From Escherichia phage W115, in the sequence record ON286974: a DNA stretch of 64,000 bases; one strand, given 5' to 3'. A model generated the notes under the pieces. That model made no database searches. It saw nothing but the letters and a program-made list of their open reading frames with translations, and was not told the origin of the DNA. Both the position numbers and the translations under genes were made by a program. Below are positions 19,603 to 62,239 of the stretch, piece after piece; positions within the stretch are counted from its first letter, which is position 1; each line of letters opens with the position of its first letter.

Positions 19603-19624
19603 TTGATACTCCTTAGTAGTTCGT

Positions 19625-19670
19625 TTCGGTATGGGTGTATTATGATATACACCATCTGTTATGTCAACAA
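19625..19670 (-). promoter_or_regulatory. PeSL early promoter cassette 1
   Basis: Minus strand TTGACA ... TAATAC with inverted repeat ggtgtat/atacacc around the -10, then CGAAACG leader and GGAGTATCAAA-ATG. Confidence 0.55.
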
Positions 19671-19673
19671 CTT

Positions 19674-19853
19674 TTAGAACATTTTTGAAATTAATTCTGC
19701 TTTGATTTCGCAGAGAACATCTAAAGATTTCTCGTCACCCGCTTTTGCTGCTTCTGCTTGCATTTTTGAAATGGCTTCAATGTCAGTGCAATTATAAGCC
19801 GCTTGAACTTTAGCGATTGCGATGATTGCCGATTCGATGGTTAAGTTTTTCAT
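19674..19853 (-). CDS. small hypothetical protein (59 aa)
   Basis: Manual ORF (MKNLTIESAII...) starting just after a PeSL. Confidence 0.35.
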   Translation of the reverse strand: MKNLTIESAIIAIAKVQAAYNCTDIEAISKMQAEAAKAGDEKSLDVLCEIKAELISKMF

Positions 19854-19879
19854 GTTTGATTCTCCTTTCGTTTCGGTAT

Positions 19880-19920
19880 GTGTGCATTATAGGGGATCAC
19901 CGATCCCCCTGTCAACAATT
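19880..19920 (-). promoter_or_regulatory. PeSL early promoter cassette 2
   Basis: TTGACA - palindrome GGGGGATCGGTGATCCCC - TATAAT, then CCGAAACGAAA leader and GGAGAATCAAA before ATG. Confidence 0.6.
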
Positions 19921-19922
19921 TT

Positions 19923-20441
19923 TTAGTTATTTTTTAATTGCTCATCTTGCAATAGGGCAATCACATGCTGGCGATGTTCTTCCGATTGAGGCACACCGAA
20001 AAAGTTTGTTTTGTAGAAATACTCTAATCGGTCTTCTCGTGTGCTCTCTTCCATCATGATCGCGGGTAGTCCGAGATTTCGGAAACGTCGCTTTTCTGCT
20101 GGCGTAAAATCACTGTAATACAACATAGAATCATCATTACCAGCAATGCTAAACTCATCCTTCATAAAGGAGAATATTGCGTTTAAACGCTGTTTACCGT
20201 CCACGATTTCGATCTCATAGCGAGAGCCATCATCAATCTTAGCCATTGCGATAGCACCAACCGGAAAATCATTAATCAGGTTTTCGATAAACATACGTTT
20301 GTTTTCGGTGTCCCATACCAAAGGACGCTGATAATCTGGGTTCATGTTGATATAGCCATCTTCTAACCATGCATCATAAACAGAGATGACAAAGTTTTTA
20401 GTATTGGTATAGTAACGGCGTTTAGGCGTTAAACGGTTCAT
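19923..20441 (-). CDS. DUF262 / ParB-like domain protein (GmrSD N-terminal-like)
   Basis: Track ORF trimmed to ATG with AGGAGA RBS; NPDYQRPLVWD...FPVGAIAM...EIVDGKQRLNAIFSF matches the DUF262 signature (DGQQR-type). Confidence 0.65.
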   Translation of the reverse strand: MNRLTPKRRYYTNTKNFVISVYDAWLEDGYINMNPDYQRPLVWDTENKRMFIENLINDFPVGAIAMAKIDDGSRYEIEIVDGKQRLNAIFSFMKDEFSIAGNDDSMLYYSDFTPAEKRRFRNLGLPAIMMEESTREDRLEYFYKTNFFGVPQSEEHRQHVIALLQDEQLKNN

Positions 20442-20442
20442 G

Positions 20443-20775
20443 TTATAGTCTCCTGAATGGATCATCACGTAAATCAATATCTTTTAAGAACTCATCCCAT
20501 GAATGGCGGATATTGTTCTTAATTCTCCAGATAAGAGCAGGGATTGAACGCTCTCCCATCTGGAAGTATGGATCATATGATCCGTATGCCCAATATGCTA
20601 CTACAATTCCACAATCAGCGCAATAGTATTCTATTTCACTTGCTGGCGACCAAAGTCCATCAATATGATCGGTGATCTTGCTTTCGATGTTATGGCTATG
20701 ACAATCAGGGCAACGGATGCAATGACCTTGTTTATCGTAATTTGACGTTAGCGAATACTTAAACAATCTCATCAT
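20443..20775 (-). CDS. zinc-ribbon protein
   Basis: 110 aa; CIRCPDC ... CADC (two CxxC pairs); overlaps neighbours by 4 nt. Confidence 0.55.
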   Translation of the reverse strand: MMRLFKYSLTSNYDKQGHCIRCPDCHSHNIESKITDHIDGLWSPASEIEYYCADCGIVVAYWAYGSYDPYFQMGERSIPALIWRIKNNIRHSWDEFLKDIDLRDDPFRRL

Positions 20776-21488
20776 AGATCCTTATTGGCTTCAAATACTG
20801 CCTTTGCGAATCCTCGCGGGGTAAGTGACCTGATAGTCTTTGTTCTGGTTCCTTTCCCGCCTAGCTTAGAATGCTGTTTACTGTACCCTTTATTAATCTG
20901 CAACGGTTTCTTTTCTGGCATTATAAAGCCTTGTCCGGTCCATAAGCAAGTCTTTTTTGGGTACATATCACGGGCGGCAATATACTCAGGAAACGTAGGA
21001 TGTTTATCATCTTCCGGCAAATAACCGCCATATTCCCACGGATGGAACATGTAATCAGGCTTACGCCACATGCTAGAGATAACGCTTACAGGATTCTCTA
21101 TCATGTATGGAACTCCTAGCCATTCACCCAAATAAGCGGTTATTTTAGCTGCCCGTACATCATGAACTTGAATCAATGGTCCTTGTTCTCGTTTCTTTCG
21201 TTCAAAGTGCGCAGCGCCACTAACAGCTAAATTGGTGCACGGTGGGAATGCAAAGATAATATCCGGTTTCCCCCATTCAAGGTCCATTGCTCTTTCCAGC
21301 CAGTTCAAATCAATCCAGGTGTTTACATAGGTAATGTTTTGATGTTCAAATCTGGTATTATATTTTTTGTATGTACCGTGGTCGGCGTCATCCGCATTAA
21401 AGCAGACTACCTTATGACCTGCTTTAGCCCATTCTAGCCCCATTATCCCCGATCCGTCAAAGTTGCAGAATATTAATTTTTGTTTCAT
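20772..21488 (-). CDS. C5-cytosine methyltransferase-fold protein (minimal, atypical)
   Basis: 238 aa; motif I-like FDGSGIMG, motif IV-like FPPCTNLAVSG (PC dipeptide), motif VI-like IENPVS; no obvious target-recognition domain. Confidence 0.5.
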   Translation of the reverse strand: MKQKLIFCNFDGSGIMGLEWAKAGHKVVCFNADDADHGTYKKYNTRFEHQNITYVNTWIDLNWLERAMDLEWGKPDIIFAFPPCTNLAVSGAAHFERKKREQGPLIQVHDVRAAKITAYLGEWLGVPYMIENPVSVISSMWRKPDYMFHPWEYGGYLPEDDKHPTFPEYIAARDMYPKKTCLWTGQGFIMPEKKPLQINKGYSKQHSKLGGKGTRTKTIRSLTPRGFAKAVFEANKDL

Positions 21489-21730
21489 ATACGCCCCTTT
21501 AATCCAACACAGATTTTAGAAGGTTCTTTGCCGTGCCACATTAAGTAAATTCCGTTAGTACGGCCTTGTTTTGTATATGATTCTTTTCTGATCTTCTTAT
21601 AGTGTCGTGCTTCCTCAGCCGATTGTTTAGAATGTCGATCATAAAGGAAGAGGAACAAAGGCCACCCATTAGCGACCTTAATGCAGTTATTCAAAAATTC
21701 CTTATTTCGTTTAATTAATTTTCTTTTCAC
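21485..21730 (-). CDS. hypothetical basic protein (81 aa)
   Basis: Track ORF; 4-nt overlaps with neighbours indicate translational coupling. Confidence 0.5.
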   Translation of the reverse strand: MKRKLIKRNKEFLNNCIKVANGWPLFLFLYDRHSKQSAEEARHYKKIRKESYTKQGRTNGIYLMWHGKEPSKICVGLKGRI

Positions 21731-21978
21731 GCTGCCCCCATTGGTTTGATAGTAACAGAATCTAAAAGACCTTTGTTAGCCAGTTCGCGGCAAGTTTTCA
21801 GATCCGCAACTTCCCAGCCAGCCGCAATCAGGTTATCAATCAGGCTGTTAGCAATTTCTTCGCTCATGAAAGAGCACTGTTTGCCGATGGTGTAGCGTAC
21901 ACGCTGTAATTTCAGTTTACGGAAGCCTTTAACGTTCAGGTCTTTAGCGATTTTCTTTGCGGTTTCGATGTTAGCCAT
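21727..21978 (-). CDS. hypothetical protein (83 aa), first gene of the operon
   Basis: Track ORF directly downstream of PeSL 3. Confidence 0.5.
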   Translation of the reverse strand: MANIETAKKIAKDLNVKGFRKLKLQRVRYTIGKQCSFMSEEIANSLIDNLIAAGWEVADLKTCRELANKGLLDSVTIKPMGAA

Positions 21979-22014
21979 TGTTTGATTCTCCTAAGTGGTA
22001 TCTCGTCTTGATGG

Positions 22015-22050
22015 TTGTATTGTAGGGGAGTTATCCTCCCCTGTCAACAC
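22015..22050 (-). promoter_or_regulatory. PeSL early promoter cassette 3
   Basis: TTGACA - palindrome AGGGGAGGATAACTCCCC - TACAAT; conserved leader and GGAGAATCAAA. Confidence 0.55.
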
Positions 22051-22061
22051 TTTTTATAAAA

Positions 22062-22229
22062 TTATTTGTTAATTTCTGGTGCGTTGCTCGGATAGTAACC
22101 TTCTTTAACACCCAGATATTTTGCAACCATCCCTACAATCTTCTGTGCTACTACAATGTCAAATTTCAGATAATCTTCGCCGTGGGTTTCAATGATATAT
22201 GCTTCACATGCTGCTTTAGTCTCGAACAT
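22062..22229 (-). CDS. small hypothetical protein (55 aa), duplicate of 25849..26016
   Basis: Manual ORF MFETKAACEAYIIETHGEDYLKFDIVVAQKI...; same length and near-identical sequence to the 25849..26016 ORF, by eye. Confidence 0.45.
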   Translation of the reverse strand: MFETKAACEAYIIETHGEDYLKFDIVVAQKIVGMVAKYLGVKEGYYPSNAPEINK

Positions 22230-22259
22230 TTTGATTCTCCTATTTCGTTTCGGTATGTG

Positions 22260-22295
22260 TGTAGTATAGGGGATCTCCCGATCCCCGTCAACAAC
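22260..22295 (-). promoter_or_regulatory. PeSL early promoter cassette 4
   Basis: GTTGAC - palindrome GGGGATCGGGAGATCCCC - TATACT; conserved leader. Confidence 0.6.
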
Positions 22296-22305
22296 TTTTT
22301 TAAAA

Positions 22306-22587
22306 TTATTCGTGATTAGTTTCGATGTTATACATTTTGCACCAGTTCAGCCAATCACCCAGATCCTGATAGTTGATGCTTTTATCTGCTGCCATCGTTT
22401 TTGTCTTGATACCCATATGTGCGTTATGAGTAAGCATTTTTACAGTGAACTCAATTTTATCGCCTTTAGCTTTAACATCAACCAGTTTGGTCCACTGGCT
22501 ACCAGCGCCGCGAATGTTCATACCAACGATGTTTCCGATGTATGCTTCTTTGTTTTTCAGGATTTCGGTTGCTTTGATGAATTTCAT
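22306..22587 (-). CDS. hypothetical protein (93 aa)
   Basis: Track ORF after PeSL 5. Confidence 0.55.
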   Translation of the reverse strand: MKFIKATEILKNKEAYIGNIVGMNIRGAGSQWTKLVDVKAKGDKIEFTVKMLTHNAHMGIKTKTMAADKSINYQDLGDWLNWCKMYNIETNHE

Positions 22588-22614
22588 TTTTGATTCTCCA
22601 GTTCGTTTCGGTAT

Positions 22615-22655
22615 GGGTGTATTATGCTATGTTCTTACTTTGGTGTCAACAACTT
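22615..22655 (-). promoter_or_regulatory. PeSL-type early promoter 5 (no strong stem)
   Basis: TTGACA ... TAATAC, CCGAAACGAA leader, GGAGAATCAAA before ATG. Confidence 0.5.
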
Positions 22656-22660
22656 TTTTT

Positions 22661-22930
22661 TTAGATATTTTCAGAAATAAATTTTAAAACTTGACGTAAA
22701 TGTTTCTCATCTTTGATAGTTGCCGGAAGTTCTTCTTTTACTTCCTGTGCAAGATAGATATTTCCGTTCCAAGTGAAAGATCCGTCTTCGTTTACTCGAT
22801 AGCTGAACATCCACTCGCAATCATTTTCGATTTCATATACACACAGAAGGGTGTAATCGTTAAAGCTATTGATTTCAATGTCGAAGCCGTGACGTTTTGC
22901 AAAGTTGGTAGTGGTTTTAGTCAGTGCCAT
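22661..22930 (-). CDS. hypothetical protein (89 aa)
   Basis: Track ORF after PeSL 6. Confidence 0.55.
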   Translation of the reverse strand: MALTKTTTNFAKRHGFDIEINSFNDYTLLCVYEIENDCEWMFSYRVNEDGSFTWNGNIYLAQEVKEELPATIKDEKHLRQVLKFISENI

Positions 22931-22964
22931 TGTTTGATTCTCCTAAGTGGTATCTCGTTTCGAT

Positions 22965-23005
22965 GTGTGTATTATGCTATGGGCGTGATCTGGTGTCAAC
23001 AACTT
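22965..23005 (-). promoter_or_regulatory. PeSL-type early promoter 6
   Basis: TTGACA ... TAATAC with CGAAACGAGATAC leader and GGAGAATCAAA. Confidence 0.5.
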
Positions 23006-23026
23006 TTTTAAATTTTTGGAAATAAA

Positions 23027-23057
23027 AAGCCGACACTAAGGTCGGCACATTTAAAAA
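23027..23057 (-). terminator. intrinsic terminator
   Basis: gccgacc-ttagt-gtcggc hairpin plus T-run on the minus strand. Confidence 0.55.
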
Positions 23058-23335
23058 TTCTTGCTATATATGCAAGCCTCATAATCTAGAGGATGACCGC
23101 CAATCCTACCAGGCTTAATATTCCAACCGCATCGATATTTGCTGACCATGCTAACCGTTTCGGTTCTTAGAGCATTTCTTTGCAAATCATACCCCCTAAA
23201 TTCTTGTCTATAAGGACAGTCCGCTTTGCAAGTTGGTGGTTCTACGTCATTTAGCGGGTCAGAAGCAGTTGGCTTTATTATCAATTCTTTGTTTGCAATA
23301 ATCATAAGCACATCCCATTGAAGACAATTTAACAT
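23051..23335 (-). CDS. hypothetical Cys-containing protein
   Basis: Track ORF 23051..23368 trimmed to first ATG; overlaps the upstream small ORF in another frame, so the start is uncertain. Confidence 0.35.
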   Translation of the reverse strand: MLNCLQWDVLMIIANKELIIKPTASDPLNDVEPPTCKADCPYRQEFRGYDLQRNALRTETVSMVSKYRCGWNIKPGRIGGHPLDYEACIYSKNF

Positions 23336-23438
23336 CTTCGCAATAAGTGTTGAATCCGTCAAATACAATCACTTCGTATTTGACTCCATCGGCGATAGCT
23401 TTTACTTTATACCATCCATGCTTGTATAAAATCTTCAT
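23259..23438 (-). CDS. small hypothetical protein (59 aa)
   Basis: Track ORF trimmed to ATG with GAGGGA RBS, directly after PeSL 7. Confidence 0.4.
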   Translation of the reverse strand: MKILYKHGWYKVKAIADGVKYEVIVFDGFNTYCEDVKLSSMGCAYDYCKQRIDNKANCF

Positions 23439-23464
23439 CTTTATTTCCCTCAATCTCGTTTCGA

Positions 23465-23505
23465 TGTGTGTATTATGCTATAGGCTAGACCAGGTTGTCA
23501 ACAAC
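23465..23505 (-). promoter_or_regulatory. PeSL-type early promoter 7
   Basis: TTGACA ... TAATAC, CGAAACGAG leader. Confidence 0.5.
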
Positions 23506-23519
23506 TTTTTTAAAATTTT

Positions 23520-23553
23520 ATGCAATAAAAAAGCCGACACTAAGGTCGGCTAA
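23520..23553 (-). terminator. intrinsic terminator (near-copy of the 23027 element)
   Basis: gccgacc-ttagt-gtcggc hairpin plus T-run. Confidence 0.55.
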
Positions 23554-23558
23554 TAAAA

Positions 23559-23867
23559 TCATTTAGACAAATAATCTTTCAGTGCAATCCGGTCGGCATG
23601 TTCCGGCGTTACGTCAATCGCAATCACTTTAACTCGTGCTTTCTTGCGACCTGGGTTTTCTCGTAACCAGTGCTCATGACCGTGAACATTTTTATACTGC
23701 GATGCTTCTTCGAAGGTACGGATCGGACCTGGGTAATCAGCGTAAAGGATCTCTAGATCTTCGGTGATGTAAAAATATACATCGTAATTGCTGTTCTCTA
23801 GTTTAAGCAGAGACTTTCGGAACATTGGGAGATTTTCGCGGGTAAATTCAAAGATATTATCTTTCAT
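23559..23867 (-). CDS. small protein family member A (HxHW ... V-I-A-I-D-V motif)
   Basis: 102 aa; ...VYFYITEDLEILYADY...HGHEHW...VKVIAIDV...; shares its C-terminal motif with five other ORFs in this region. Confidence 0.6.
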   Translation of the reverse strand: MKDNIFEFTRENLPMFRKSLLKLENSNYDVYFYITEDLEILYADYPGPIRTFEEASQYKNVHGHEHWLRENPGRKKARVKVIAIDVTPEHADRIALKDYLSK

Positions 23868-23885
23868 AGTATTATCCTCAATAGT

Positions 23886-23915
23886 TGGATGAAAAGGGGG
23901 GCTTAACGCCCCGTA
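23886..23915 (-). terminator. intrinsic terminator
   Basis: ggggggcttaacgcccc hairpin plus T-run on the minus strand. Confidence 0.5.
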
Positions 23916-23917
23916 TA

Positions 23918-24205
23918 TTAAAACAGTCCTTCCTGTACACCGTAGTAGAGTTCATCGCTGATAATTTCATTAATGCGACGGTGTGCATATTCCTGATTTG
24001 CGAAGTTATCAGCAAGTTCTACTTTAGTTTCTCCGTCATGAGTCCATTTAGTGATAACTTTACCATCTGCAAATTTGAAGTTGAACTCTTTAGCTACTGC
24101 ATCGCGTACCAGACGTGCGAACTTGTTATTACGGATTGCATTATCGGTTTCGTGTGCAGCGTGAGCGAATTTGTTAACTTTCAGAGTGATAGTAATGTAT
24201 GCCAT
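23918..24205 (-). CDS. hypothetical protein (95 aa), paralog of 27215..27526
   Basis: Shares ...RNNKFARLVRDAVAKEFNFK... with ...KNATLIREVRKALAKEFNTK... in the 27215 ORF. Confidence 0.55.
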   Translation of the reverse strand: MAYITITLKVNKFAHAAHETDNAIRNNKFARLVRDAVAKEFNFKFADGKVITKWTHDGETKVELADNFANQEYAHRRINEIISDELYYGVQEGLF

Positions 24206-24244
24206 AATTTGATTCTCCTAGTTAGAAAGTGTATCTCGTTTCGA

Positions 24245-24285
24245 TGGGTGTATTATGCTATACACCCTCTCGCGTGTCAACACTT
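24245..24285 (-). promoter_or_regulatory. PeSL early promoter cassette 8
   Basis: TTGACA ... inverted repeat GGGTGTAT/ATACACCC with -10 TAATAC in the loop; conserved leader. Confidence 0.55.
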
Positions 24286-24286
24286 T

Positions 24287-24565
24287 TTATAAAATAATTT
24301 TTTGATATTTTTCTATGATGTTTGTGTAATCCACATCAACCGCTATCACCGTTGCTTCGAATCCACCGTTTAGCCAATGGCTATGGTCATGATCGTGAAA
24401 GAAACCAAGACCAGTACGAAGACCTTCTTTATATTCGGCGCGTACATTTAGATCATCATCGATAAACAGATAAAACCATGAATTTTTACTAGGATTGATG
24501 ATACAACCTTTCAGATTAGGGAGAATATCACGACTAAGAATAAACTTATCACCTACTTTGAACAT
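24287..24565 (-). CDS. small protein family member B (HxHW motif)
   Basis: Trimmed to ATG with GAGGA RBS; ...WFYLFIDDDLNVRAEY...HDHSHW...TVIAVDV... Confidence 0.6.
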   Translation of the reverse strand: MFKVGDKFILSRDILPNLKGCIINPSKNSWFYLFIDDDLNVRAEYKEGLRTGLGFFHDHDHSHWLNGGFEATVIAVDVDYTNIIEKYQKIIL

Positions 24566-24569
24566 AATA

Positions 24570-24890
24570 TTAGTCCTCATTTATAAGGTCAAACCAATTG
24601 TTTTTCGCATAATGCTTAATGCGTGCTTGATCTGCTTCCGCTGGTGATAGATTCCATGCAACCACTACAACTTCTGACGCATCGTCATCCGTTTCTGATA
24701 CCCAATGATTGTGATTCATACAGTTATTTGCGATCGAGTGAGCAAATGATTTCATCACTGGAGACGTATAATCATAGTAACGGATTTTCAGATTTTCATC
24801 AACGTACAAATAGATCGTATAAGGTTTATATTCAGTAACCAGTAACAGACAGTTACGCAATTCTGGGAAAATCTTTTTAGTTAATTTCAT
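24570..24890 (-). CDS. small protein family member C (HxHW motif, divergent C-terminus)
   Basis: Trimmed to ATG (MKLTKKIF...) with GAGGA RBS; ...IYLYVDENLKIRYYDY...NHNHW...VVVVAWN... Confidence 0.55.
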   Translation of the reverse strand: MKLTKKIFPELRNCLLLVTEYKPYTIYLYVDENLKIRYYDYTSPVMKSFAHSIANNCMNHNHWVSETDDDASEVVVVAWNLSPAEADQARIKHYAKNNWFDLINED

Positions 24891-24891
24891 T

Positions 24892-25110
24892 TTATAATCC
24901 TCGGTCGCGGCTATAGTACACGGTACGCCATACAATTTCATGTTTCGTGTCGCTCCAGCACACGATCTCATTTACTCTTAAATCTTTGTTATCAACAAAA
25001 GATGAACATTGTGACGCTTCTTTCATCATTTTATCTGCTGTTTTCTCATCAAATACAGCACAGATTTCTTTATACACTCGATAATCTTTGAATTGACTCT
25101 GAATACCCAT
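24892..25110 (-). CDS. small hypothetical protein, paralog of 25070..25333
   Basis: MGIQSQFKDYRVYKEI...KMMKEASQCSSF aligns with MSKFKEYKAYQQI...KMMEDASKCPSF; start uncertain. Confidence 0.4.
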   Translation of the reverse strand: MGIQSQFKDYRVYKEICAVFDEKTADKMMKEASQCSSFVDNKDLRVNEIVCWSDTKHEIVWRTVYYSRDRGL

Positions 25111-25333
25111 AATTAACACCATTCCAACCAATTGTTTTTGAGAAAACGTTTATCCACTGTTGAGTGTAACATGTTTCTTTCCATGATACAATACGAGTAG
25201 AATAATGGTTTTTGTTTCCAGAAAAGGACGGGCATTTTGATGCATCTTCCATCATCTTTTCGGCGAACTCTGGTGCGTATACTCGCAGGATCTGTTGATA
25301 TGCTTTGTATTCTTTAAATTTGCTCATAATCAT
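25070..25333 (-). CDS. small hypothetical protein, paralog of 24892..25110
   Basis: Track ORF; tandem duplicate of the downstream ORF. Confidence 0.45.
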   Translation of the reverse strand: MIMSKFKEYKAYQQILRVYAPEFAEKMMEDASKCPSFSGNKNHYSTRIVSWKETCYTQQWINVFSKTIGWNGVNYGYSESIQRLSSV

Positions 25334-25592
25334 TCACTACCTTATCAGCTTCTTTTGTTGTTTTTACATCAACTGCGATAACTCGTAAAGGTTCGTCATG
25401 GTTCCACCAGTGGTCATGAATATCAGCTTGTGATTTATCACCAAAGGAATCACGAATATCATTTTTACATTTATAGCTAATGTGACCTTCATAGTCAACA
25501 TAAAGGTAATTATCGAAAATCGGCGTTTTTAAGATCATACCGAAAAATCTTTCTTTGTGTGTCTTATCCAGCGTTGCAGTAATTCGCATCAT
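25314..25592 (-). CDS. small protein family member D (HxHW motif)
   Basis: 92 aa; ...NYLYVDYEGHISY...HDHWW...LRVIAVDV...; AAGAGGA RBS. Confidence 0.6.
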   Translation of the reverse strand: MMRITATLDKTHKERFFGMILKTPIFDNYLYVDYEGHISYKCKNDIRDSFGDKSQADIHDHWWNHDEPLRVIAVDVKTTKEADKVVNDYEQI

Positions 25593-25604
25593 AATATATT
25601 CCTC

Positions 25605-25784
25605 TTAGAAAGGGATGGTCATTTCTTGAGCTTGTACATTCTCGTTAGGATTAAACTTCATCCAGCCGATATTGTCTACCAGCATATGCACATTTTTATC
25701 ATATCCTACGTGAGTAGTCAACACTAAATGTGCTTTATCTTCAATGATGAGTTCCATGTACTTCTGAACTTCGATAGCTTTCAT
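25605..25784 (-). CDS. small hypothetical protein (59 aa)
   Basis: Manual ORF MKAIEVQKYMELIIEDK... directly after PeSL 9. Confidence 0.35.
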   Translation of the reverse strand: MKAIEVQKYMELIIEDKAHLVLTTHVGYDKNVHMLVDNIGWMKFNPNENVQAQEMTIPF

Positions 25785-25807
25785 TTTGATTCTCCGTTTG
25801 TTGTCTT

Positions 25808-25848
25808 GATGGGAGTATCTTACTACTCCCTTTAATCATTGTCAACTA
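25808..25848 (-). promoter_or_regulatory. PeSL early promoter cassette 9
   Basis: TTGACA ... inverted repeat GGGAGTA-GTAAGA-TACTCCC with -10-like TAAGAT in the loop; GGAGAATCAAA before ATG. Confidence 0.55.
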
Positions 25849-26016
25849 TTATTTGTTAATTTCTGGTGCGTTGCTCGGATAGTAACCTTCTTTAACACCA
25901 AGATATTTTGCAACCATTCCGGTGATCTTCTGTGCTACTACGATATCGAATTTCAGGTAGTCTTCACCGTGGTTTGCTACAATGTACGCTTCGCATTCTG
26001 CTTTAGTCTGGAACAT
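25849..26016 (-). CDS. small hypothetical protein (55 aa), duplicate of 22062..22229
   Basis: Track ORF trimmed: the N-terminal MLTGDHRSPI... is read-through of the PeSL; real start MFQTKAECEAYIVANHGEDYLKFDIVVAQKI... Confidence 0.5.
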   Translation of the reverse strand: MFQTKAECEAYIVANHGEDYLKFDIVVAQKITGMVAKYLGVKEGYYPSNAPEINK

Positions 26017-26047
26017 TTTTGATTCTCCTATATCTCGTTGGTATGTG

Positions 26048-26082
26048 TGCATTATAGGGGATCGGTGATCCCCTGTCAACAA
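26048..26082 (-). promoter_or_regulatory. PeSL early promoter cassette 10
   Basis: TTGACA - palindrome GGGGATCACCGATCCCC - TATAAT; conserved leader. Confidence 0.6.
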
Positions 26083-26084
26083 CT

Positions 26085-26378
26085 TTATAATGCTTTATAT
26101 GCGTATTTCATAAATTTGTCTGCCACTTCATTGGCATGTTCAGATTCTACGCCTGATTCGAGAACAATAGCTAGGTCGGTTTCGTCATTCCCGCCGTACC
26201 AATGATTTGATGTTCGATTTTTTTCAATTGGAAATTGGTCACTTTTATCTGTGCGACAAAATACATCTAAATGCTCGTCGATGTAAAAGATCCAATCTTC
26301 ATAAAGAATAACGGTATTAGCAAGATTTTTATTGCCTTCAACGAAAGGTTCGGCTACAAACAAATTAGTATGTTCCAT
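26085..26378 (-). CDS. small protein family member E (degenerate N-HW motif)
   Basis: Trimmed to ATG (MEHTNLFV...) with GAGGAAAA RBS; ...WIFYIDEHLDVF...SNHWYGG...LAIVLESGV... Confidence 0.55.
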   Translation of the reverse strand: MEHTNLFVAEPFVEGNKNLANTVILYEDWIFYIDEHLDVFCRTDKSDQFPIEKNRTSNHWYGGNDETDLAIVLESGVESEHANEVADKFMKYAYKAL

Positions 26379-26394
26379 AGTATTTTCCTCAAAA

Positions 26395-26586
26395 TTATAC
26401 AGCTTCGTAAACTTCCCAATGTCCAACACCAGCACGCTTAACGAAAAGGTTTTCTTTGATGTTATTCATAAACGTCTGGATGGATTTAATGCGGTTTGAA
26501 GGTTTCCATTCTTCGTTTGCATTGCGTCGATACATCATAACATTACCAGTTCGCTTATATTCAGCAACCATTTTAAGACCACACAT
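26395..26586 (-). CDS. hypothetical protein (63 aa)
   Basis: Track ORF; GAGGATAA RBS. Confidence 0.5.
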   Translation of the reverse strand: MCGLKMVAEYKRTGNVMMYRRNANEEWKPSNRIKSIQTFMNNIKENLFVKRAGVGHWEVYEAV

Positions 26587-26643
26587 AATATTATCCTCAA
26601 TTTGTGGGAGAGTATTACCCCTCCCAATGATTGTTATGTTATA

Positions 26644-26946
26644 TCACACAAAATGGCGTGTCAATGCTTCTTTTGCGGTTCCGCTAAGATTCTCGATCTC
26701 TCCTGGCATAACATCAACCGCAAGAACTTCTACAACATCCTCTGATCCTAACCAGTGAGTATGACCTTTGTAGAACTTGATATCCCATTTATCGCTATCG
26801 CTAGCCCACCACACATCACCGTCGATAAAGTTGATGTAAAGCACACTACGCCACATTGAATTAATTACTTTCAATACTGCGCCTTTCATCTCTTCCACGG
26901 TGTGGTCTTCCATTTTGAAGACCTCGCCTACCTTAACTTTTGCCAT
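26644..26946 (-). CDS. small protein family member F (HxHW motif)
   Basis: 100 aa; ...VLYINFIDGDVWW...HTHW...VEVLAVDV...; AGAGAGGTGA RBS. Confidence 0.6.
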   Translation of the reverse strand: MAKVKVGEVFKMEDHTVEEMKGAVLKVINSMWRSVLYINFIDGDVWWASDSDKWDIKFYKGHTHWLGSEDVVEVLAVDVMPGEIENLSGTAKEALTRHFV

Positions 26947-26963
26947 TTAGTCACCTCTCTTTA

Positions 26964-27143
26964 TTACATAACAATCACGCCAGCCGTTGAAAGTTGATGT
27001 TTCAACTGAGCATTTTCTGCTACCGTCAAATCAATGATTTCTTGTGACGCTGCAATCATATAGCCATTGGTGATATTGTTTTGCATCAGTTCAATGGTTT
27101 CTTCGTTGTAGCGGATTTTAGCGATGATTTCGTTGAAGTTCAT
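26964..27143 (-). CDS. small hypothetical protein (59 aa)
   Basis: Track ORF trimmed to remove promoter read-through (MLTGDHRSPI...); real start MNFNEIIAK... Confidence 0.45.
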   Translation of the reverse strand: MNFNEIIAKIRYNEETIELMQNNITNGYMIAASQEIIDLTVAENAQLKHQLSTAGVIVM

Positions 27144-27174
27144 AATTGATTCTCCTAGTTCGTTTCGGTATGTG

Positions 27175-27210
27175 TGTAGTATAGGGGATCGGTGATCCCC
27201 TGTCAACAAC
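27175..27210 (-). promoter_or_regulatory. PeSL early promoter cassette 11
   Basis: TTGACA - palindrome GGGGATCACCGATCCCC - TATACT; leader nearly identical to cassette 4. Confidence 0.6.
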
Positions 27211-27214
27211 TTTT

Positions 27215-27526
27215 TTAAAGTTTTTCCATGATAACGGTCATAATTATATCTTCTGCGCGAGCGGTCAGATTATCAGCGTCAGCATGTGGGCGGTTGGTTG
27301 TTACAGAGATAACACCGTTGCGCACTGGTTTGATGTTGATATCAAGATGATCCGCGAAACGTTCGCCAGTTACAGAATGAATTTTGGTGTTAAATTCTTT
27401 TGCCAGTGCCTTGCGAACTTCACGAATCAGGGTAGCGTTTTTCAGTTGGTTCTCCGCGCTCATGGTCTTCTGGGTGTTCATGGTTCCGTCGAAGTCAATC
27501 ATTGGCAGCGTTACGATGTATTTCAT
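27215..27526 (-). CDS. hypothetical protein (103 aa), paralog of 23918..24205
   Basis: Trimmed to ATG (MKYIVTLPM...); shared ...VRKALAKEFN... motif. Confidence 0.5.
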   Translation of the reverse strand: MKYIVTLPMIDFDGTMNTQKTMSAENQLKNATLIREVRKALAKEFNTKIHSVTGERFADHLDINIKPVRNGVISVTTNRPHADADNLTARAEDIIMTVIMEKL

Positions 27527-27569
27527 TTTTGATTCTCCGTTTAAGAAAGTGTGTTTCGTTTTGATGTGT

Positions 27570-27602
27570 GTAGTATAGGGGATCACCGATCCCCTGTCAA
27601 CA
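27570..27602 (-). promoter_or_regulatory. PeSL early promoter cassette 12
   Basis: TTGACA - palindrome GGGGATCGGTGATCCCC - TATACT. Confidence 0.6.
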
Positions 27603-27612
27603 ACTTTTTGAA

Positions 27613-28089
27613 TTATTTTTCTTGATGCTCGCGATCGTACTTTTCGAAATAAAATTCTACTGGCTGGTCGTGGATTGACAGCAAGCCAAAGCGTTTAGCC
27701 GCTCGCAATCCCATATTGCGCTGAATGTACTTCTGGAAGTTCTCGCGTATACACTTACGCCAGGATTCTAAGCCCATGCAGCTTTTATAAAGATTGCATT
27801 GCACACATGCCGGATTCATGTTATCAAGTATATCATGCTCCGGTTTATGCATTCCTACAACCTTATACTTCCACGATCCATCATCATTACGGGCAATTCG
27901 TCCATTTTCATCATAGACAACCTTTGAGCGTCGTAATACTGGTTTGATATGGTCTGCGTGCCAGCGATCCCCTAGTTCCTCGCCACAATAGGCACAACGT
28001 CCACCGTATTTCATTTTCAGGATCTGACGTTGCTCTTTCTTTGACAATTTTTTAGGTTTAGGGGCTTTCGCCCCTTCATTATCACACAT
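27613..28089 (-). CDS. HNH endonuclease
   Basis: 158 aa; CAYCG ... HADHIKP ... N ... CVQCN (HNH zinc-finger nuclease motif); start overlaps the ligase stop. Confidence 0.7.
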   Translation of the reverse strand: MCDNEGAKAPKPKKLSKKEQRQILKMKYGGRCAYCGEELGDRWHADHIKPVLRRSKVVYDENGRIARNDDGSWKYKVVGMHKPEHDILDNMNPACVQCNLYKSCMGLESWRKCIRENFQKYIQRNMGLRAAKRFGLLSIHDQPVEFYFEKYDREHQEK

Positions 28090-35393: not shown

Positions 35394-35417
35394 CTTGGTA
35401 CTCCTTAGTTGTTTTGG

Positions 35418-35458
35418 TGTGGGAGTATCTTACTACTCCCGTGATATGCTGTCAACTG
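35418..35458 (-). promoter_or_regulatory. PeSL early promoter cassette 13
   Basis: TTGACA ... stem GGGAGTAGTAAGATACTCCC. Confidence 0.55.
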
Positions 35459-35463
35459 CTTTT

Positions 35464-35613
35464 TTATGCAACCGCAAACATCAACATTTGAACATTCTTG
35501 GCTGTCTGGCTTTCAAAGTTCTGACATTCTTTGATAATGTCCTCTACTTTCTCGCCGGAGATCTCCGCGTAAGTTTCGATTGCCATTTTCAGTACCGCGT
35601 CAAAGTTGTTCAT
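35464..35613 (-). CDS. small hypothetical protein (49 aa)
   Basis: Manual ORF between two PeSLs (MNNFDAVLKMAIETY...). Confidence 0.3.
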   Translation of the reverse strand: MNNFDAVLKMAIETYAEISGEKVEDIIKECQNFESQTAKNVQMLMFAVA

Positions 35614-35643
35614 TTGATTCTCCTTAAAGTGTATTTCGTTTCG

Positions 35644-35683
35644 ATGGGGGTATATTACTACCCCCGTTTCATGCTGTCAACTA
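35644..35683 (-). promoter_or_regulatory. PeSL early promoter cassette 14
   Basis: TTGACA ... stem GGGGGTAGTAATATACCCCC; GGAGAATCAAA before ATG. Confidence 0.55.
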
Positions 35684-35899
35684 CTTTTTAATGACAAGTT
35701 CGAATTTTGCTACCTTGCGTCCTCGTTTATTGAAAGCAACCCACGGACGGTTTTCAATGTAGAACAATTCTTCACCAATAATGAATACTGGCTGATTGTA
35801 AAGGCGACCCATCAGGTCACGCTGGCGAATGGTAGTAGATTCGTATACTTCGCCTACTACAAAGTGTTTGCTGATAGAGTCGGTGCAAGTAAATTTCAT
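35681..35899 (-). CDS. hypothetical protein (72 aa)
   Basis: Track ORF. Confidence 0.5.
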   Translation of the reverse strand: MKFTCTDSISKHFVVGEVYESTTIRQRDLMGRLYNQPVFIIGEELFYIENRPWVAFNKRGRKVAKFELVIKK

Positions 35900-35921
35900 T
35901 TTGATTCTCCTTTGTTTTCTT

Positions 35922-35963
35922 GATGGGAGTATCTTACTACCCCCCGTTATTCAGTGTCAACTA
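35922..35963 (-). promoter_or_regulatory. PeSL early promoter cassette 15
   Basis: TTGACA ... stem GGGGGTAGTAAGATACTCCC. Confidence 0.55.
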
Positions 35964-35967
35964 CTTT

Positions 35968-36186
35968 TTACTTGTTGTATTCATTCCACCACTGGGTGAG
36001 CTTATCAATTATTTTTGTGTTTCTATCCAACTTCTCCCACCGTTTTCTAGGGTTTATCAACCGGAATAGGTAAGGTGTACTTGTTAAGTGAACTCGGTCA
36101 ATGTAGTGATTGATGTACTGCTTTTCGATTCTAAGTTTCATCTTTTTACGATGAAAATATGCAATGACTTGTTCTTCTGTTTCCAT
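35968..36186 (-). CDS. hypothetical protein (72 aa)
   Basis: Track ORF. Confidence 0.5.
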   Translation of the reverse strand: METEEQVIAYFHRKKMKLRIEKQYINHYIDRVHLTSTPYLFRLINPRKRWEKLDRNTKIIDKLTQWWNEYNK

Positions 36187-36204
36187 ATGTTCCTCCGTTT
36201 CGAT

Positions 36205-36242
36205 GGGTGCATTATGCTATACCCCGATCCGATTGTCAACAC
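36205..36242 (-). promoter_or_regulatory. PeSL-type early promoter 16
   Basis: TTGACA ... TAATGC, CGAAACGGAGGAACAT-ATG. Confidence 0.45.
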
Positions 36243-36249
36243 CCAATAA

Positions 36250-36286
36250 CAAAAAAGTCGCCACTATGGGCGACTTTGAACAAACA
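36250..36286 (-). terminator. intrinsic terminator
   Basis: agtcgcc-catagt-ggcgact hairpin then TTTTTT on the minus strand. Confidence 0.55.
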
Positions 36287-38443: not shown

Positions 38444-38471
38444 AATAAAATACTCACTTGTTTTTGATGGT

Positions 38472-38506
38472 TGTATTATAGCGGGGATTTCTCCCCGCGT
38501 CAACAC
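38472..38506 (-). promoter_or_regulatory. PeSL early promoter cassette 17
   Basis: TTGACG - palindrome CGGGGAGAAATCCCCG - TATAAT, immediately downstream of the nrdA stop. Confidence 0.55.
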
Positions 38507-38511
38507 TTATT

Positions 38512-40755
38512 TTACAGCTTGCAAGATGAGCACTCGCTAGCGTCTTCCGTACCATCAGCACCGTCGCGAACGTTCGCATAATACAGGGTTTTCAGACCGT
38601 AATATTGAGCAAACAACATATCATCTAACACATCAGCAATATCGACTTTACCAGTCTTATAAGTGCTTGGATCGTATGATGTATTGGAACTAATCGCCTG
38701 ATCCACAAACTTCTGCATGATCGCTGCCAGTGTCAGATAAGGCTTGTTACCTTTCTTGATCAGTGTCCAAAGCAGGTCAATAACATCAGCATTATTCTCT
38801 ACGTTCGGAATAACCTGATTAAATTGCCCTTCTTTCGATCCTTTAACCGATACAATCCCGCGAGGCGGTTCAATACCATTTGTGCTGTTAGACACCTGAG
38901 AGGACGACTCACAAGGCATCAGAGCCGAAAGCGTACTATTACGAATGCCATATTTTTTCAGGTCTTCGCGCAGTTCTTCCCAATCCATCTCATACACCGG
39001 ATCAACCAGTTCATCTACTGTCTTTTTGTACCAGTCGATAGGCAGTTCACCGCGACCATAACGTGTTTCGTGCATCAGTTCGCAAGCACCCTTCTCTTTT
39101 GCTAGCTGCACACTAGCTTTAATCAGAGCATATTGCAAGCGTTCAAACGTTTTATGCGTAAACTCGCTAGCGTCTTCATATGTGAAGAAATTATCCGCGA
39201 GATACGATGCAAAGTTAGTCACCCCAACACCCAGAGAGCGACGTTTTTTGGCTGTCAGAGCTTGCTCTACAGGATAATCCTGATAATCTAACAGGTTGTC
39301 AAGTGCACGCACCATAACCATAGCAATGCGTTCTACTTCTTCCATGTTTTCGATATCGAAATTACCTAAAACATATGCTGCCAAAGTACATAGGCTGATC
39401 TCTGAATCATCACGACCCATCGGTTTTGTTGGCAGAGCAATTTCACAACACAGGTTAGATTGTTTAATCGGTGCTACATTACGAATAAACGCCCCGTGAT
39501 TGTTCATGTTGTCTGTGAACGTTGGGTAGATTCGACCAGTGTTAAAACGTTCAATTGCCACCGCTAAAAACAGGTCTTCGGCTTTAACACGAGTTTTACG
39601 AACACTCGGATCTTTTTCCAGTTTTTCGTAAAGCTGACGGAAACCTTCCTCATCTCGGAAGTATAGATCCCACAACAAGCCACCTGCAACATCTGGACTA
39701 AACAGAGTAATGTAATCCCGTTTAAGGAATCGCTCTACCATCAGGTTATTAATCTGTACGCCGTAATCAAGATGACGAATGCGGTTATCTTCTACCCCTT
39801 TGTTATTCTTTAACACAATCAGACTTTCAAACTCTAAATGCCACATTGGGTAATAGAGAGTCGCCGCCCCGCCACGAATACCGCCTTGTGAGCATGACTT
39901 AACGGCAGTCTGAAAATGTTTCCAGAATGGGATAACGCCAGTATGACGAACTTCACCATGCCCGATCTTAGATCCTTCCGCGCGAATCATGCCAGCGTTG
40001 ATACCGATACCAGCACGCTTGCTAATATACTTAATGATTGCATTTGCGGTTTCATTAATACCCTGCAATGAGTCATCACTTTCAATCACCACACACGAAC
40101 TAAATTGGCGTGTTGGGGTACGCACACCTGCCATAATCGGAGTAGGCAGAGAGATTTGCTTATTCGCAACAGCATTATAAAAATCAATCACATGTTCAAG
40201 TCGATTTTCTGTCTCTTCTTGATGCAAGCACATACCGATCAGCATATACGCAAATTGCGGTGTTTCGATGATTTTCTTAGTGCTGCGATCCTGAACAAGA
40301 TATTTCTCTTTTAACTGCATCGCACCAGCATAGGTCATTTTAAAATCAAGTTTATGGTCGATGAATTTCTCCAGATATTCCACTTCTTCACGGGAATATT
40401 TTTGCAGAATTTCGCGATCATATTTTCCGGTTTCAATATTACGCTCAATATGGCTGTAAAAATCAATCGGTTGGAATTGACCGTATACTGATTTACGAAG
40501 CGCGAACATTGCAAGGTTACTTGCTACATATTGATAATCGGGTGTTTCGACAGTAATGTTATCTGCTGCGACCTTAATCAATACTTTCTGGATATCATTG
40601 GTAGACATACCTTCTGTCAGAAGTGGTTCAACCATATCAAACAATTCATATGGATCAACGTTATGACCTTCGGCTGCCGCTTCCAGAATTTTCATTACTT
40701 TTTCTTTTTCAAACGGAACAGTCAGACCGGAAGACTTAACAACATTTTTAATCAT
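38512..40755 (-). CDS. nrdA: ribonucleotide reductase large subunit
   Basis: 747 aa; ATP-cone N-terminus, catalytic Cys/Asn/Glu context (NLCCEI), C-terminal redox Cys pair; T4 NrdA-like length. Confidence 0.9.
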   Translation of the reverse strand: MIKNVVKSSGLTVPFEKEKVMKILEAAAEGHNVDPYELFDMVEPLLTEGMSTNDIQKVLIKVAADNITVETPDYQYVASNLAMFALRKSVYGQFQPIDFYSHIERNIETGKYDREILQKYSREEVEYLEKFIDHKLDFKMTYAGAMQLKEKYLVQDRSTKKIIETPQFAYMLIGMCLHQEETENRLEHVIDFYNAVANKQISLPTPIMAGVRTPTRQFSSCVVIESDDSLQGINETANAIIKYISKRAGIGINAGMIRAEGSKIGHGEVRHTGVIPFWKHFQTAVKSCSQGGIRGGAATLYYPMWHLEFESLIVLKNNKGVEDNRIRHLDYGVQINNLMVERFLKRDYITLFSPDVAGGLLWDLYFRDEEGFRQLYEKLEKDPSVRKTRVKAEDLFLAVAIERFNTGRIYPTFTDNMNNHGAFIRNVAPIKQSNLCCEIALPTKPMGRDDSEISLCTLAAYVLGNFDIENMEEVERIAMVMVRALDNLLDYQDYPVEQALTAKKRRSLGVGVTNFASYLADNFFTYEDASEFTHKTFERLQYALIKASVQLAKEKGACELMHETRYGRGELPIDWYKKTVDELVDPVYEMDWEELREDLKKYGIRNSTLSALMPCESSSQVSNSTNGIEPPRGIVSVKGSKEGQFNQVIPNVENNADVIDLLWTLIKKGNKPYLTLAAIMQKFVDQAISSNTSYDPSTYKTGKVDIADVLDDMLFAQYYGLKTLYYANVRDGADGTEDASECSSCKL

Positions 40756-43293: not shown

Positions 43294-43321
43294 AATATAA
43301 TCCTCTCTTTGTTTCGATATG

Positions 43322-43355
43322 TACATTATACACTATTGCGTTACGCTGTCAACTC
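43322..43355 (-). promoter_or_regulatory. sigma70-like early promoter 18 (TTGACA-16-TATAAT)
   Basis: Read on the minus strand upstream of the 42964..43293 ORF. Confidence 0.5.
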
Positions 43356-44357
43356 TTTTTCAAAAGTTTTTACGATATACATGATAGTGCTCAATTCAGA
43401 CGGCGCGACTGTTTCTGTGTAGCCATCCGGCATATCTTCTTTTGAGATATAGGAAGTTTTACCTTTCATCGCTTCCTTGATCTTGTTCTCTAATTCTAAG
43501 ATCTTTTGACCGTCTTGTAAAGTCAATTCATAAAAGATCTCGTGGTCGAATTTAGATTTCGCTGATTGGTTTCTCATTCGTTCTTGTGTTGTTAAATTGG
43601 TTATTCCAAATTTGATTCCATAAAAACATGATTTTTTAATTAGTTTTTGAATGTATAGTGTTCCGTGTTTTAAAGTGTTGTATCCAAATCTAGCACAACT
43701 TGAACATCTATTTCCTGATAGAAACCCGTTAATTGTTGGTGTAAATGTATGACCATTACAACATTGCAATTTTAATTTTGTTGTATTTCCTTTCCATTCA
43801 CCTATAAATCCATTGAATAGTATGTTTTCTTTATCAAAGATTGGTTTAATTCTAATAATATAGTCATCTTTGGGTATTGATTTTAATTCTTTCAGTTTTA
43901 ACCGGTAGCATTCTTGGCAGCGTCTTCCATTTTTGAAATTGTTAATTGTTGGTGTAAATGTATGTCCATTACAACATTGTAGATTTAATTTTGTCGATGA
44001 CCTTTTCCATTCACCTATAAATCCATTGAATAGTATGTTTTCTTTATCAAAGATTGGAGTTAACTTATGTAGATGTTCATCTTCCGAAAAAGATTTCATC
44101 CTTCCATTCTTTATGTCTGCACATTTATGACAGCGATTTCCAGCGTTGAAATTGTTAATTGTTATTGTAAATGTATGACCATTACAACATTGCAATTTTA
44201 ATTTTGTTGTATTTCCTTTCCATTCACCTATAAATCCAATAAACTTTATATTTTCTTTAAAGAATGTTGGTTTTAATTCTTCGTAGTAATTCACTGGAGA
44301 TTTTGAATTGTGAGCTTTTCTAACCCATTCAATCTCATGTGCTTGACGTACTAACAT
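43341..44357 (-). CDS. protein with three tandem Cys/His zinc-ribbon repeats and a C-terminal T5orf172/GIY-YIG-like region
   Basis: Trimmed to ATG with GGAGGA RBS; three roughly 70-aa repeats (GFIGEWKGNTTKLKLQCCNGHTFT.TINNF..GNRC..C); C-terminus GTLYIQKL...FYGIKFGITNL...R resembles T5orf172. Confidence 0.5.
   Translation of the reverse strand: MLVRQAHEIEWVRKAHNSKSPVNYYEELKPTFFKENIKFIGFIGEWKGNTTKLKLQCCNGHTFTITINNFNAGNRCHKCADIKNGRMKSFSEDEHLHKLTPIFDKENILFNGFIGEWKRSSTKLNLQCCNGHTFTPTINNFKNGRRCQECYRLKLKELKSIPKDDYIIRIKPIFDKENILFNGFIGEWKGNTTKLKLQCCNGHTFTPTINGFLSGNRCSSCARFGYNTLKHGTLYIQKLIKKSCFYGIKFGITNLTTQERMRNQSAKSKFDHEIFYELTLQDGQKILELENKIKEAMKGKTSYISKEDMPDGYTETVAPSELSTIMYIVKTFEKELTA
43730..44275. 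repeat. three tandem copies of a roughly 210-bp coding repeat (high nucleotide identity)
   Basis: Near-identical blocks starting near 43730, 43937 and 44150 (aattgttggtgtaaatgtatgaccattacaacattgcaattttaattttgttg...), by eye. Confidence 0.7.
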
Positions 44358-44384
44358 AATTTTATCCTCCGTTGTTTCTATGGG

Positions 44385-44418
44385 TGCATTATACATTACC
44401 ACATCAGCATGTCAATAC
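44385..44418 (-). promoter_or_regulatory. sigma70-like early promoter 19 (TTGACA-16-TATAAT)
   Basis: Read on the minus strand upstream of the zinc-ribbon repeat gene. Confidence 0.5.
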
Positions 44419-44436
44419 ATTTTCATAAAATTTTAG

Positions 44437-62170: not shown

Positions 62171-62195
62171 AATATATTCCTCAGTGTTTTGTCTT

Positions 62196-62236: not shown

Positions 62237-62239
62237 TTT

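Follow-up and report, generated by a model that had tools for sequence, protein, structure and literature searches.

The 64,000-nucleotide stretch of Escherichia phage W115 analysed here (sequence record ON286974; "the window" denotes this stretch at its full length) raises the question why one promoter module, many copies of which enclose an inverted repeat, is repeated on a single strand ahead of a series of small genes, most densely between positions 19603 and 27612. A first-pass annotation, prepared from the letters alone, had read these modules as mobile early-promoter cassettes similar to the promoter-early stem-loops (PeSLs) of T4-type phages, and had also considered that the repeats could be operator sites. 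According to the present analysis, the modules are very probably the PeSLs of RB49/phi1-type phages, and they lie in the very region in which these elements were first defined. The cassette reading was correct in that the window is of the appropriate phage type and the span is orthologous to the PeSL region of RB49; as the PeSL system at its type locus is already known, the finding is not new.

By its sequence, the window was assigned to the genus Krischvirus, i.e., to an RB49-like T4-type coliphage (Straboviridae). A megablast search with 19603-27612 matched 63 phage records, all of which are RB49-type coliphages or Shigella phages of this genus, and vB_Eco_SAP, TB34, MIZ6 and RB49 showed 96-97% identity across the whole segment. 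The segment is collinear and orthologous with ORF185c-ORF212c of RB49, with ORF185-212 as the counterpart in phi1. In RB49 this is a hyperplastic stretch of small hypothetical genes, bounded by alt (RNA polymerase ADP-ribosylase) and gene 30 (gp30, DNA ligase). The remaining clusters of the module are situated before the homologues of RB49 p225-228, p233, p239 and p262-266.

PeSLs were defined by Arbiol et al. (2010, Genome Biol Evol 2:140, PMC2839356) in RB49 (51 copies) and phi1 (52 copies) as units composed of a stop codon, an AT-rich region, σ70 boxes, a stem-loop which is often of the form polyG...polyC, a Shine-Dalgarno (SD) sequence and a start codon. They are repeated in hyperplastic regions, the downstream open reading frame (ORF) is usually an ORFan, and five subclasses were distinguished by the position of the stem, which is found in the spacer, overlapping the -35 or -10 box, upstream, or just downstream of the -10 box. 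In the same study, PeSL206/205 fused to lacZ gave about 13,000 Miller units, while promoter-down mutations were needed for the remaining PeSL clones to be viable. Read-through into lacZ was lowered by the stem-loop of PeSL211/210 to about the same extent as by rrnB T1. Inverse PCR detected ORF192 and ORF210 as mini-circles, each with one chimeric PeSL, and the cassettes were likened to integron cassettes (PMC2839356). Orthologues of PeSL206/205 and PeSL211/210 are present in the window at 26079 and 27600, as assigned from the RB49 gene order and sequences.

Copies of the module were detected with a regular expression (TTGACN, spacer of 16-18 nt, -10 box [TC]AnnnT, leader of 10-60 nt, SD motif and start codon), which matched 32 times on the minus strand and three times on the plus strand. 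An extended module is common to 24 of these sites, all of them on the minus strand and co-oriented with the early genes: twelve in 19.6-27.6 kb, four in 35.4-36.3 kb, one at 38.5 kb, two at 43.3-44.4 kb and five in 62.2-63.8 kb (Table 1; copies are named by the first base of their -35 box). At least 24 minus-strand copies, 12 of them in 19.6-27.6 kb, had been claimed before, and the regular expression returned exactly 24 in the same places.

The module starts with an A-tract, AAAAAG(T)TG, followed by the -35 box TTGACA, a spacer of mostly 17 nt (16-18), the -10 hexamer (TATAAT, TATACT, TAAGAT or CATAAT; TAnnnT or CATAAT in all 24), a downstream block ACAC(A/C)CAT continued by (AC)CGAAACGA or CAAGACAA, and a ribosome binding site (RBS), GGAGAATCAAA or similar, directly ahead of the ATG. 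A near-consensus σ70 promoter and an SD motif (GGAG, AGGA, GAGG or GAGT, 5-10 nt before the ATG) were present in 24 of 24 copies, and an AAAAAG-type A-tract lies at most 14 nt upstream of the -35 box in 21. The earlier statement that each copy has TTGACA, the conserved leader and the RBS is overstated if exact sequences are meant: TTGACA was found in 19 of the 24 copies, CCGAAACGA in 7, CGAAACGA in 11 and GGAGAATCAAA in 13. Nolan et al. (2006, PMC1524935) gave a consensus for the early promoters of RB49 with G at -33 and T or C at -12, and stated that the 5' ends mapped for early transcripts of this phage are in agreement with it; TATAAT and CATAAT in the window correspond to the T or C at -12.

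A profile hidden Markov model (HMM) was trained on the same 24 copies and used solely to seek additional ones; the E-values with which it regained the training copies (1e-9 to 2e-17) are circular by construction. One additional match was obtained in the 64 kb (3286-3232, weak, E = 0.008), and the plus strand gave none. A generic promoter scan listed 31 promoter-like sites in 19.0-28.5 kb versus 29.8 expected; ten sites agreed with the consensus at 11 or more of 12 positions, and every one of these is a module copy. In a blast search, an 86-nt PeSL query matched 58 of 50,697 phage records, all Krischvirus-type, in 4-9 places each among the records listed, and the exact pattern of the spacer palindrome was found in only two IMG/VR contigs. 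The elements are thus kept in 58 Krischvirus-type records, and they were also present in nine of nine relatives compared below.

For each copy, the sequence from the -35 box to about +8 was folded, and the 70 nt upstream were folded separately; spot checks agreed. A stem-loop was found in 22 of the 24 copies, with energies of -8 to -15 kcal/mol and z of about -2 to -6. In eight copies, the stem is located in the spacer (GGGGATC-NNN-GATCCCC, GGGGAG/CTCCCC or CGGGGA/TCCCCG; -12.8 to -15.1 kcal/mol). In another eight, or ten if the weaker stems at 36239 and 63050 are included, it encloses the -10 box in its loop (GGGAGTA/TACTCCC, GGGGGTA/TACCCCC or GGGTGTAT/ATACACCC). Five copies have an upstream hairpin followed by a T-run, which is the canonical form of a Rho-independent terminator; a terminator scan lists two of these, and all five are supported by folding and sequence. 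The two repeats quoted by the first-pass annotation were recovered, GGGGATC-ACC-GATCCCC at 26079 and 27206 and GGGAGTA-GTAAGA-TACTCCC at 25845, 35455 and 62233. An Rfam scan of the entire window matched no family.

A profile scan of nine related loci together with the window yielded 67 distinct promoter cores, among which the loops vary (ACC, GGT, GGC, ATC, GCA, GGGA) while the pairing of the stem is kept. Copy 24280 and its RB49 orthologue differ by two compensated pairs (GGGTGTAT/ATACACCC versus GGGGATAT/ATATCCCC in RB49); further compensatory contrasts are GGGAGTA/TACTCCC versus GGGGGTA/TACCCCC (35680) and GGGGATC/GATCCCC versus GGGGAG/CTCCCC (22047). As the pairing is retained through these changes, they fit selection for a hairpin and do not fit a single protein which reads a fixed half-site. 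An automated count of G-U pairs (9 in sense versus 62 in antisense) was dropped: the fixed -35 and -10 hexamers on either side of the stems contribute G-U pairs to the antisense fold and thus confound the comparison.

These results bear on the suggestion that the palindromes are operators, i.e., that a phage or host DNA-binding protein (an early-promoter repressor or a recombination helper) reads the inverted repeats in duplex DNA. The repeats overlap the promoter core, in the spacer or at the -10 box, so that a bound protein would stand in the way of RNA polymerase, and the core GGGATC/GATCCC is common to six of the eight spacer palindromes. However, conservation of the half-sites is lacking, with five or more stem sequences, and orthologues differ by paired changes which keep complementarity. 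The stem also shifts among the spacer, -10 and upstream classes and has no fixed position relative to the promoter, two functional-looking promoters do without any repeat, and the 27 ORFs of the region include no candidate regulator. On inspection, three core stems showed G-U wobble pairs in sense orientation and none an A-C equivalent, which is in the same direction, with numbers too few to weigh. With stems which vary between copies and orthologues in sequence and position while pairing persists, the operator suggestion is unsupported and appears unlikely.

Gene content between the modules was compared among relatives, as the first-pass annotation had proposed, by setting positions 18000-29600 of the window against the homologous loci of RB49, MIZ4, Makalu_001, Brandy, JK32, PTE-Eco09, KMB43, FL04 and UPWr_E1. 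Thirteen distinct indels were found, of which seven extend from one PeSL to another, three have one end at a PeSL and three are located elsewhere (Table 1). In six deletions, the alignment blocks on both sides share 42-106 bp of the relative's sequence, and the relative therefore retains a single PeSL matching both parents. Three-way alignments revealed that the junction PeSLs of these six deletions are chimeric, and the crossover intervals map to AAAAAGTTGTTGACA(GGGGATC) or to ACACACAT(ACCGAAACGA). The junction in MIZ4 is a three-part mosaic, the sequence of which would fit two successive events. In total, 17 of 26 breakpoints are within the 9.4% of the region which PeSL footprints occupy (P = 5e-12); for indels with both ends at PeSLs, P = 0.0065 was obtained. 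ORF192, ORF195/196 and ORF211 are all present in RB49 and all absent from phi1, and the window keeps ORF195/196 only. Its gene content is a mosaic in this respect, since it is without ORF192 and ORF211 like phi1 and has ORF195/196 like RB49.

Taken as PeSLs, the modules would act as follows. The near-consensus σ70 promoter with its upstream A-tract would be recognised by the host RNA polymerase in its unmodified form as soon as infection begins, and would drive a short unstructured A/C-rich leader, a strong GGAG RBS and one or a few small ORFan genes; promoter strength is adopted here from the published orthologues, as are terminator activity and mini-circles. Transcription probably starts some 7 nt beyond the -10 box, with the A of the conserved CAT as +1, since a preference for C at -3 to -1 was reported for early promoters of RB49 by Nolan et al. 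(PMC1524935). All stems are upstream of this likely start, and the hairpin would therefore be missing from the mRNA of its own cassette; its formation would require read-through RNA or single-stranded DNA. In read-through transcripts it would attenuate or terminate transcription and thereby insulate the cassette; for the W115 copies, we infer termination in vivo as well as the precise start site. Near-identical stretches of about 70-100 bp recur every 0.25-2 kb in one orientation, and the homologous recombination machinery of the phage could therefore cross over between PeSL copies. Such a crossover would delete, insert or swap the intervening genes and leave one chimeric PeSL.

Some observations weigh against this reading. 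Copies 22649 and 43352 gave no significant stem on folding. No U-run follows on the 3' side of the 16-18 stems which lie in the spacer or enclose the -10 box (CCCC-UAUACU..., CCC-AUCAAG...), and by sequence these stems are therefore not canonical intrinsic terminators; a terminator role is suggested for them by one published reporter assay with one orthologue. Three of the 13 indels are at other gene boundaries and have no PeSL at either end; hence, PeSLs are not the sole route to indels. In addition, the enrichment of breakpoints is modest (P = 0.026) under a null model which confines breakpoints to the 27 gene boundaries (12 with PeSLs).

A more elaborate role for the hairpins is conceivable, in which the G-rich stem-loops are recognition structures for a phage protein that targets recombination to PeSLs. 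If true, the array would be an integron-like cassette system in which a recombinase assists and encapsidated mini-circles serve as intermediates of transfer. The spread of the crossovers over two blocks, together with the lack of a visible recombinase in the array, does not favour protein-targeted recombination, and we regard this role as very doubtful.

The modules might, conversely, be nothing but strong promoters repeated by duplication, without any role in recombination; indels would then cluster at them simply because only intergenic breakpoints are tolerated. Promoter function is certain, the modules are located at gene boundaries, and the gene-boundary null model is departed from only modestly. 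Nevertheless, six junctions hold a single chimeric PeSL, the left part of which corresponds to the upstream copy and the right part to the downstream copy. The overlap of 42-106 bp at the junctions indicates homologous exchange between repeats instead of random end-joining, and the published mini-circles are the reciprocal product of such an exchange. We consider it highly improbable that the modules are promoters only. Equally remote is the assumption of autonomous mobile elements similar to integron cassettes or miniature inverted-repeat transposable elements, with a dedicated site-specific recombinase or transposase recognising the stem-loop: the units are cassette-like (promoter plus ORFan between repeats) and circular intermediates have been reported, but Pfam shows no integrase, recombinase or transposase domain among the 27 ORFs of the array at 19390-28089, which were the ORFs screened, the crossovers are spread over two conserved blocks instead of one fixed site, and the module sequence is confined to Krischvirus genomes.

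Duplication of a promoter together with its gene, which the first-pass annotation had pointed out, was confirmed. A 55-aa ORFan at 22062..22229 (minus strand, homologue of RB49 ORF191) is a paralogue of another 55-aa ORFan at 25849..26016 (minus strand, homologue of RB49 ORF205), with 89% amino acid identity, and both are situated behind a PeSL with a spacer palindrome. Nucleotide identity between 22040-22320 and 25830-26105 is 88% and covers both the PeSL and the ORF, from A-tract to stop codon.

Of the 27 ORFs of the array, 24 lacked any Pfam hit over Pfam's own cut-off, and two reached it, with GmrSD_N and HNH, respectively; matches to a Zn-ribbon and to PROCT were below it. The first belongs to a group at 19923-21488 (minus strand), in which a 172-aa protein consisting solely of a GmrSD_N (DUF262, ParB-like) domain (E = 5e-20) comes first, then a protein which weakly matches a Zn-ribbon, and then a 238-aa ORF. 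The latter is annotated as C-5 cytosine DNA methylase in relatives and had no Pfam match at E ≤ 0.01. This block is part of the 2.5-kb segment 19687-22229, which is missing from MIZ4 through a PeSL-by-PeSL deletion. Several ORFs of the array are paralogous to one another. Five paralogues of about 92-106 aa (minus strand; 23559-23867, 24287-24565, 24570-24890, 25314-25592 and 26644-26946) share a C-terminal motif, H-W then V-(I/L/V)-A-(I/V/W)-(D/N), with pairwise blastp E-values of 1e-13 to 3e-4, and a tandem pair at 24892-25110 and 25070-25333 (minus strand) is 40% identical.

Outside the array, a 338-aa ORF at 43341-44357 (minus strand) behind PeSL 44415 contains three Zn-ribbon-like repeats of about 60 aa (C-C...H...C-x2-C). 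RB49 has a 1458-bp 'endonuclease' gene (p240) at this place, and the RB49 region fetched gave no match to the first 200 nt of the ORF; a different mobile nuclease may occupy the p240 site. Likewise, the first 200 nt of the ORF at 62745-62987 (minus strand) behind PeSL 63050 were unmatched in the RB49 region fetched, which may be a further cassette-level difference from RB49.

Three further promoter-like sites on the minus strand were noted. Just downstream of alt, at 17190-17275, there is a divergent PeSL-like element which was missing from the first-pass list (TTGACT, 17-nt spacer, TATACT). Its 12-bp stem, AAACGGGGACTAG/CTAGCCCCGTTT with one bulge, encloses the -10 box and is followed by a T-run (-22.3 kcal/mol, z = -2.6); terminator and promoter therefore overlap. 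The site at 26584-26680 (TTGACA, 17-nt spacer, TAACAT) has a stem GGGAGGGG/CTCTCCC downstream of the -10 box, in the leader of the ORF 26395-26586, and may belong to the PeSL subclass with the stem downstream of -10. Upstream of gene 32, at 45446-45530, consensus boxes (TTGACA with the -35 at 45510, 16-nt spacer, TATAAT) are found without PeSL leader or stem, and this site matches by position one labelled 'early RB49 promoter' in the RB49 record; thus, not every early promoter here is a PeSL. A relation of the palindromic GATC to Dam avoidance or targeting was considered; GATC is over-represented in the window and not avoided (348 observed versus 230 expected from base composition).

Table 1. 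Module copies on the minus strand of the window, named by the first base of the -35 box, and indels relative to nine Krischvirus genomes, with the PeSLs at their ends
Feature	Coordinates	Strand	Stem class	Details
PeSL 19667	19603..19687	-	-10 in loop	GGTGTAT/ATACACC, loop holds -10 CATAAT; ahead of ORF185 homologue
PeSL 19915	19854..19935	-	spacer	palindrome GGGGATC-GGT-GATCCCC; ahead of ORF186 homologue
PeSL 22047	21979..22067	-	spacer	GGGGAG/CTCCCC
PeSL 22291	22230..22311	-	spacer	-35 TTGACG; palindrome GGGATC-GGGA-GATCCC; RB49 has extra ORF192c cassette at upstream edge
PeSL-type promoter and leader 22649	22588..22669	-	none	without stem-loop
PeSL 22999	22931..23046	-	upstream	GCCGAC-CTTAGT-GTCGGC then T-run (23046-23029), canonical
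PeSL 23501	23439..23551	-	upstream	terminator hairpin as at 22999 (23551-23532); pairs with 22999 in deletion found in Makalu, PTE-Eco09 and phi1
PeSL 24280	24206..24300	-	-10 in loop	GGGTGTAT/ATACACCC around -10; stem compensated in RB49 orthologue
PeSL 25845	25785..25865	-	-10 in loop	GGGAGTA-GTAAGA-TACTCCC around -10
PeSL 26079	26017..26099	-	spacer	perfect palindrome GGGGATC-ACC-GATCCCC; orthologue of RB49 PeSL206/205
PeSL 27206	27144..27226	-	spacer	palindrome GGGGATC-ACC-GATCCCC; ahead of ORF209 homologue
PeSL 27600	27527..27620	-	spacer	palindrome GGGGATC-GGT-GATCCCC; orthologue of RB49 PeSL211/210
PeSL 35455	35394..35475	-	-10 in loop	GGGAGTA/TACTCCC around -10; ahead of RB49 p225 homologue
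PeSL 35680	35614..35700	-	-10 in loop	compensated stem GGGGGTA/TACCCCC
PeSL 35960	35900..35980	-	-10 in loop	spacer 18 nt; GGGGGGTA/TACTCCC including one G-U pair
PeSL 36239	36187..36277	-	upstream	AAAGTCGCC/GGCGACTTT then T-run
PeSL 38503	38444..38523	-	spacer	-35 TTGACG; CGGGGA/TCCCCG; ahead of small ORFs upstream of nrdA
PeSL-type promoter 43352	43294..43372	-	none	spacer 16 nt; without strong stem
PeSL 44415	44358..44469	-	upstream	AAAGCCTCC/GGAGGCTTT then T-run
PeSL 62233	62171..62253	-	-10 in loop	GGGAGTA/TACTCCC
PeSL 62455	62396..62475	-	spacer	palindrome GGGGATC-GGC-GATCCCC
PeSL 62737	62679..62757	-	-10 in loop	GGGAGTAT/ATACTCCC
PeSL 63050	62988..63070	-	-10 in loop (weaker)	degenerate stem
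PeSL 63756	63697..63797	-	upstream	-35 TTGACT; AAGCCGATC/GGTCGGCTT then T-run
ORF192c cassette present in RB49	at upstream edge of 22291			PeSL on each side in RB49
Deletion in MIZ4	19687-22229			19667 x 22291
Deletion in Makalu, PTE-Eco09	23047-23452			22999 x 23501
Deletion in Brandy, JK32, UPWr_E1	22070-22229			22047 x 22291
Deletion in Brandy, JK32, UPWr_E1	27233 to ~27510			27206 x 27600
Deletion in JK32, PTE-Eco09	~19644 to 19854			19667 x 19915
Deletion in PTE-Eco09	26087-27145			26079 x 27206
Indels with one end at a PeSL				ORF211c in RB49 and KMB43; replacement in KMB43; large replacement in FL04

As single genes which bring their own promoter and terminator, the cassettes are similar to integron cassettes, with circular intermediates as a further likeness, and to the morons of lambdoid phages, reportedly described by Hendrix and colleagues in 2000. 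Morons differ in that their insertion is not thought to need conserved flanking repeats, whereas integrons depend on attC sites and an integrase, an enzyme which was not found among the 27 ORFs of the array. Compared with canonical Rho-independent terminators, the five upstream hairpins are alike, whereas the spacer and -10 stems differ by the missing U-run. With the PeSLs of RB49 and phi1, the modules share the genus, the region (alt to gp30), the architecture and the association with ORFans and indels; the differences are at strain level only and include some compensatory stem substitutions. The PeSL concept was extended to T4/PST and KVP40/nt-1 by Comeau et al. (2014, PMC4122927). The motifs of these phages and those of T-even internal-protein loci are alike in being composites of an early promoter and a stem-loop which border variable genes and are proposed recombination linkers. 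The T4/PST and KVP40/nt-1 motifs differ by a T4-type early promoter (GTTTAC as -35) and weaker AT-rich stems, and are analogues, not homologues (PMC4122927).

Nothing new in kind is added to the PeSL system by W115. The increment is that an observation made in 2010 with two genomes holds across nine Krischvirus relatives, including chimeric junctions and mapped crossover blocks, and that compensatory changes give evidence for the maintenance of stem pairing. In annotating the phage, the label early promoter (PeSL) should be given to the 24 sites, and that of early accessory gene to the small ORFs which follow them. PeSLs are documented "linker" sequences of the Botstein type, by which a virulent phage shuffles its accessory genes while the transcription units remain intact.

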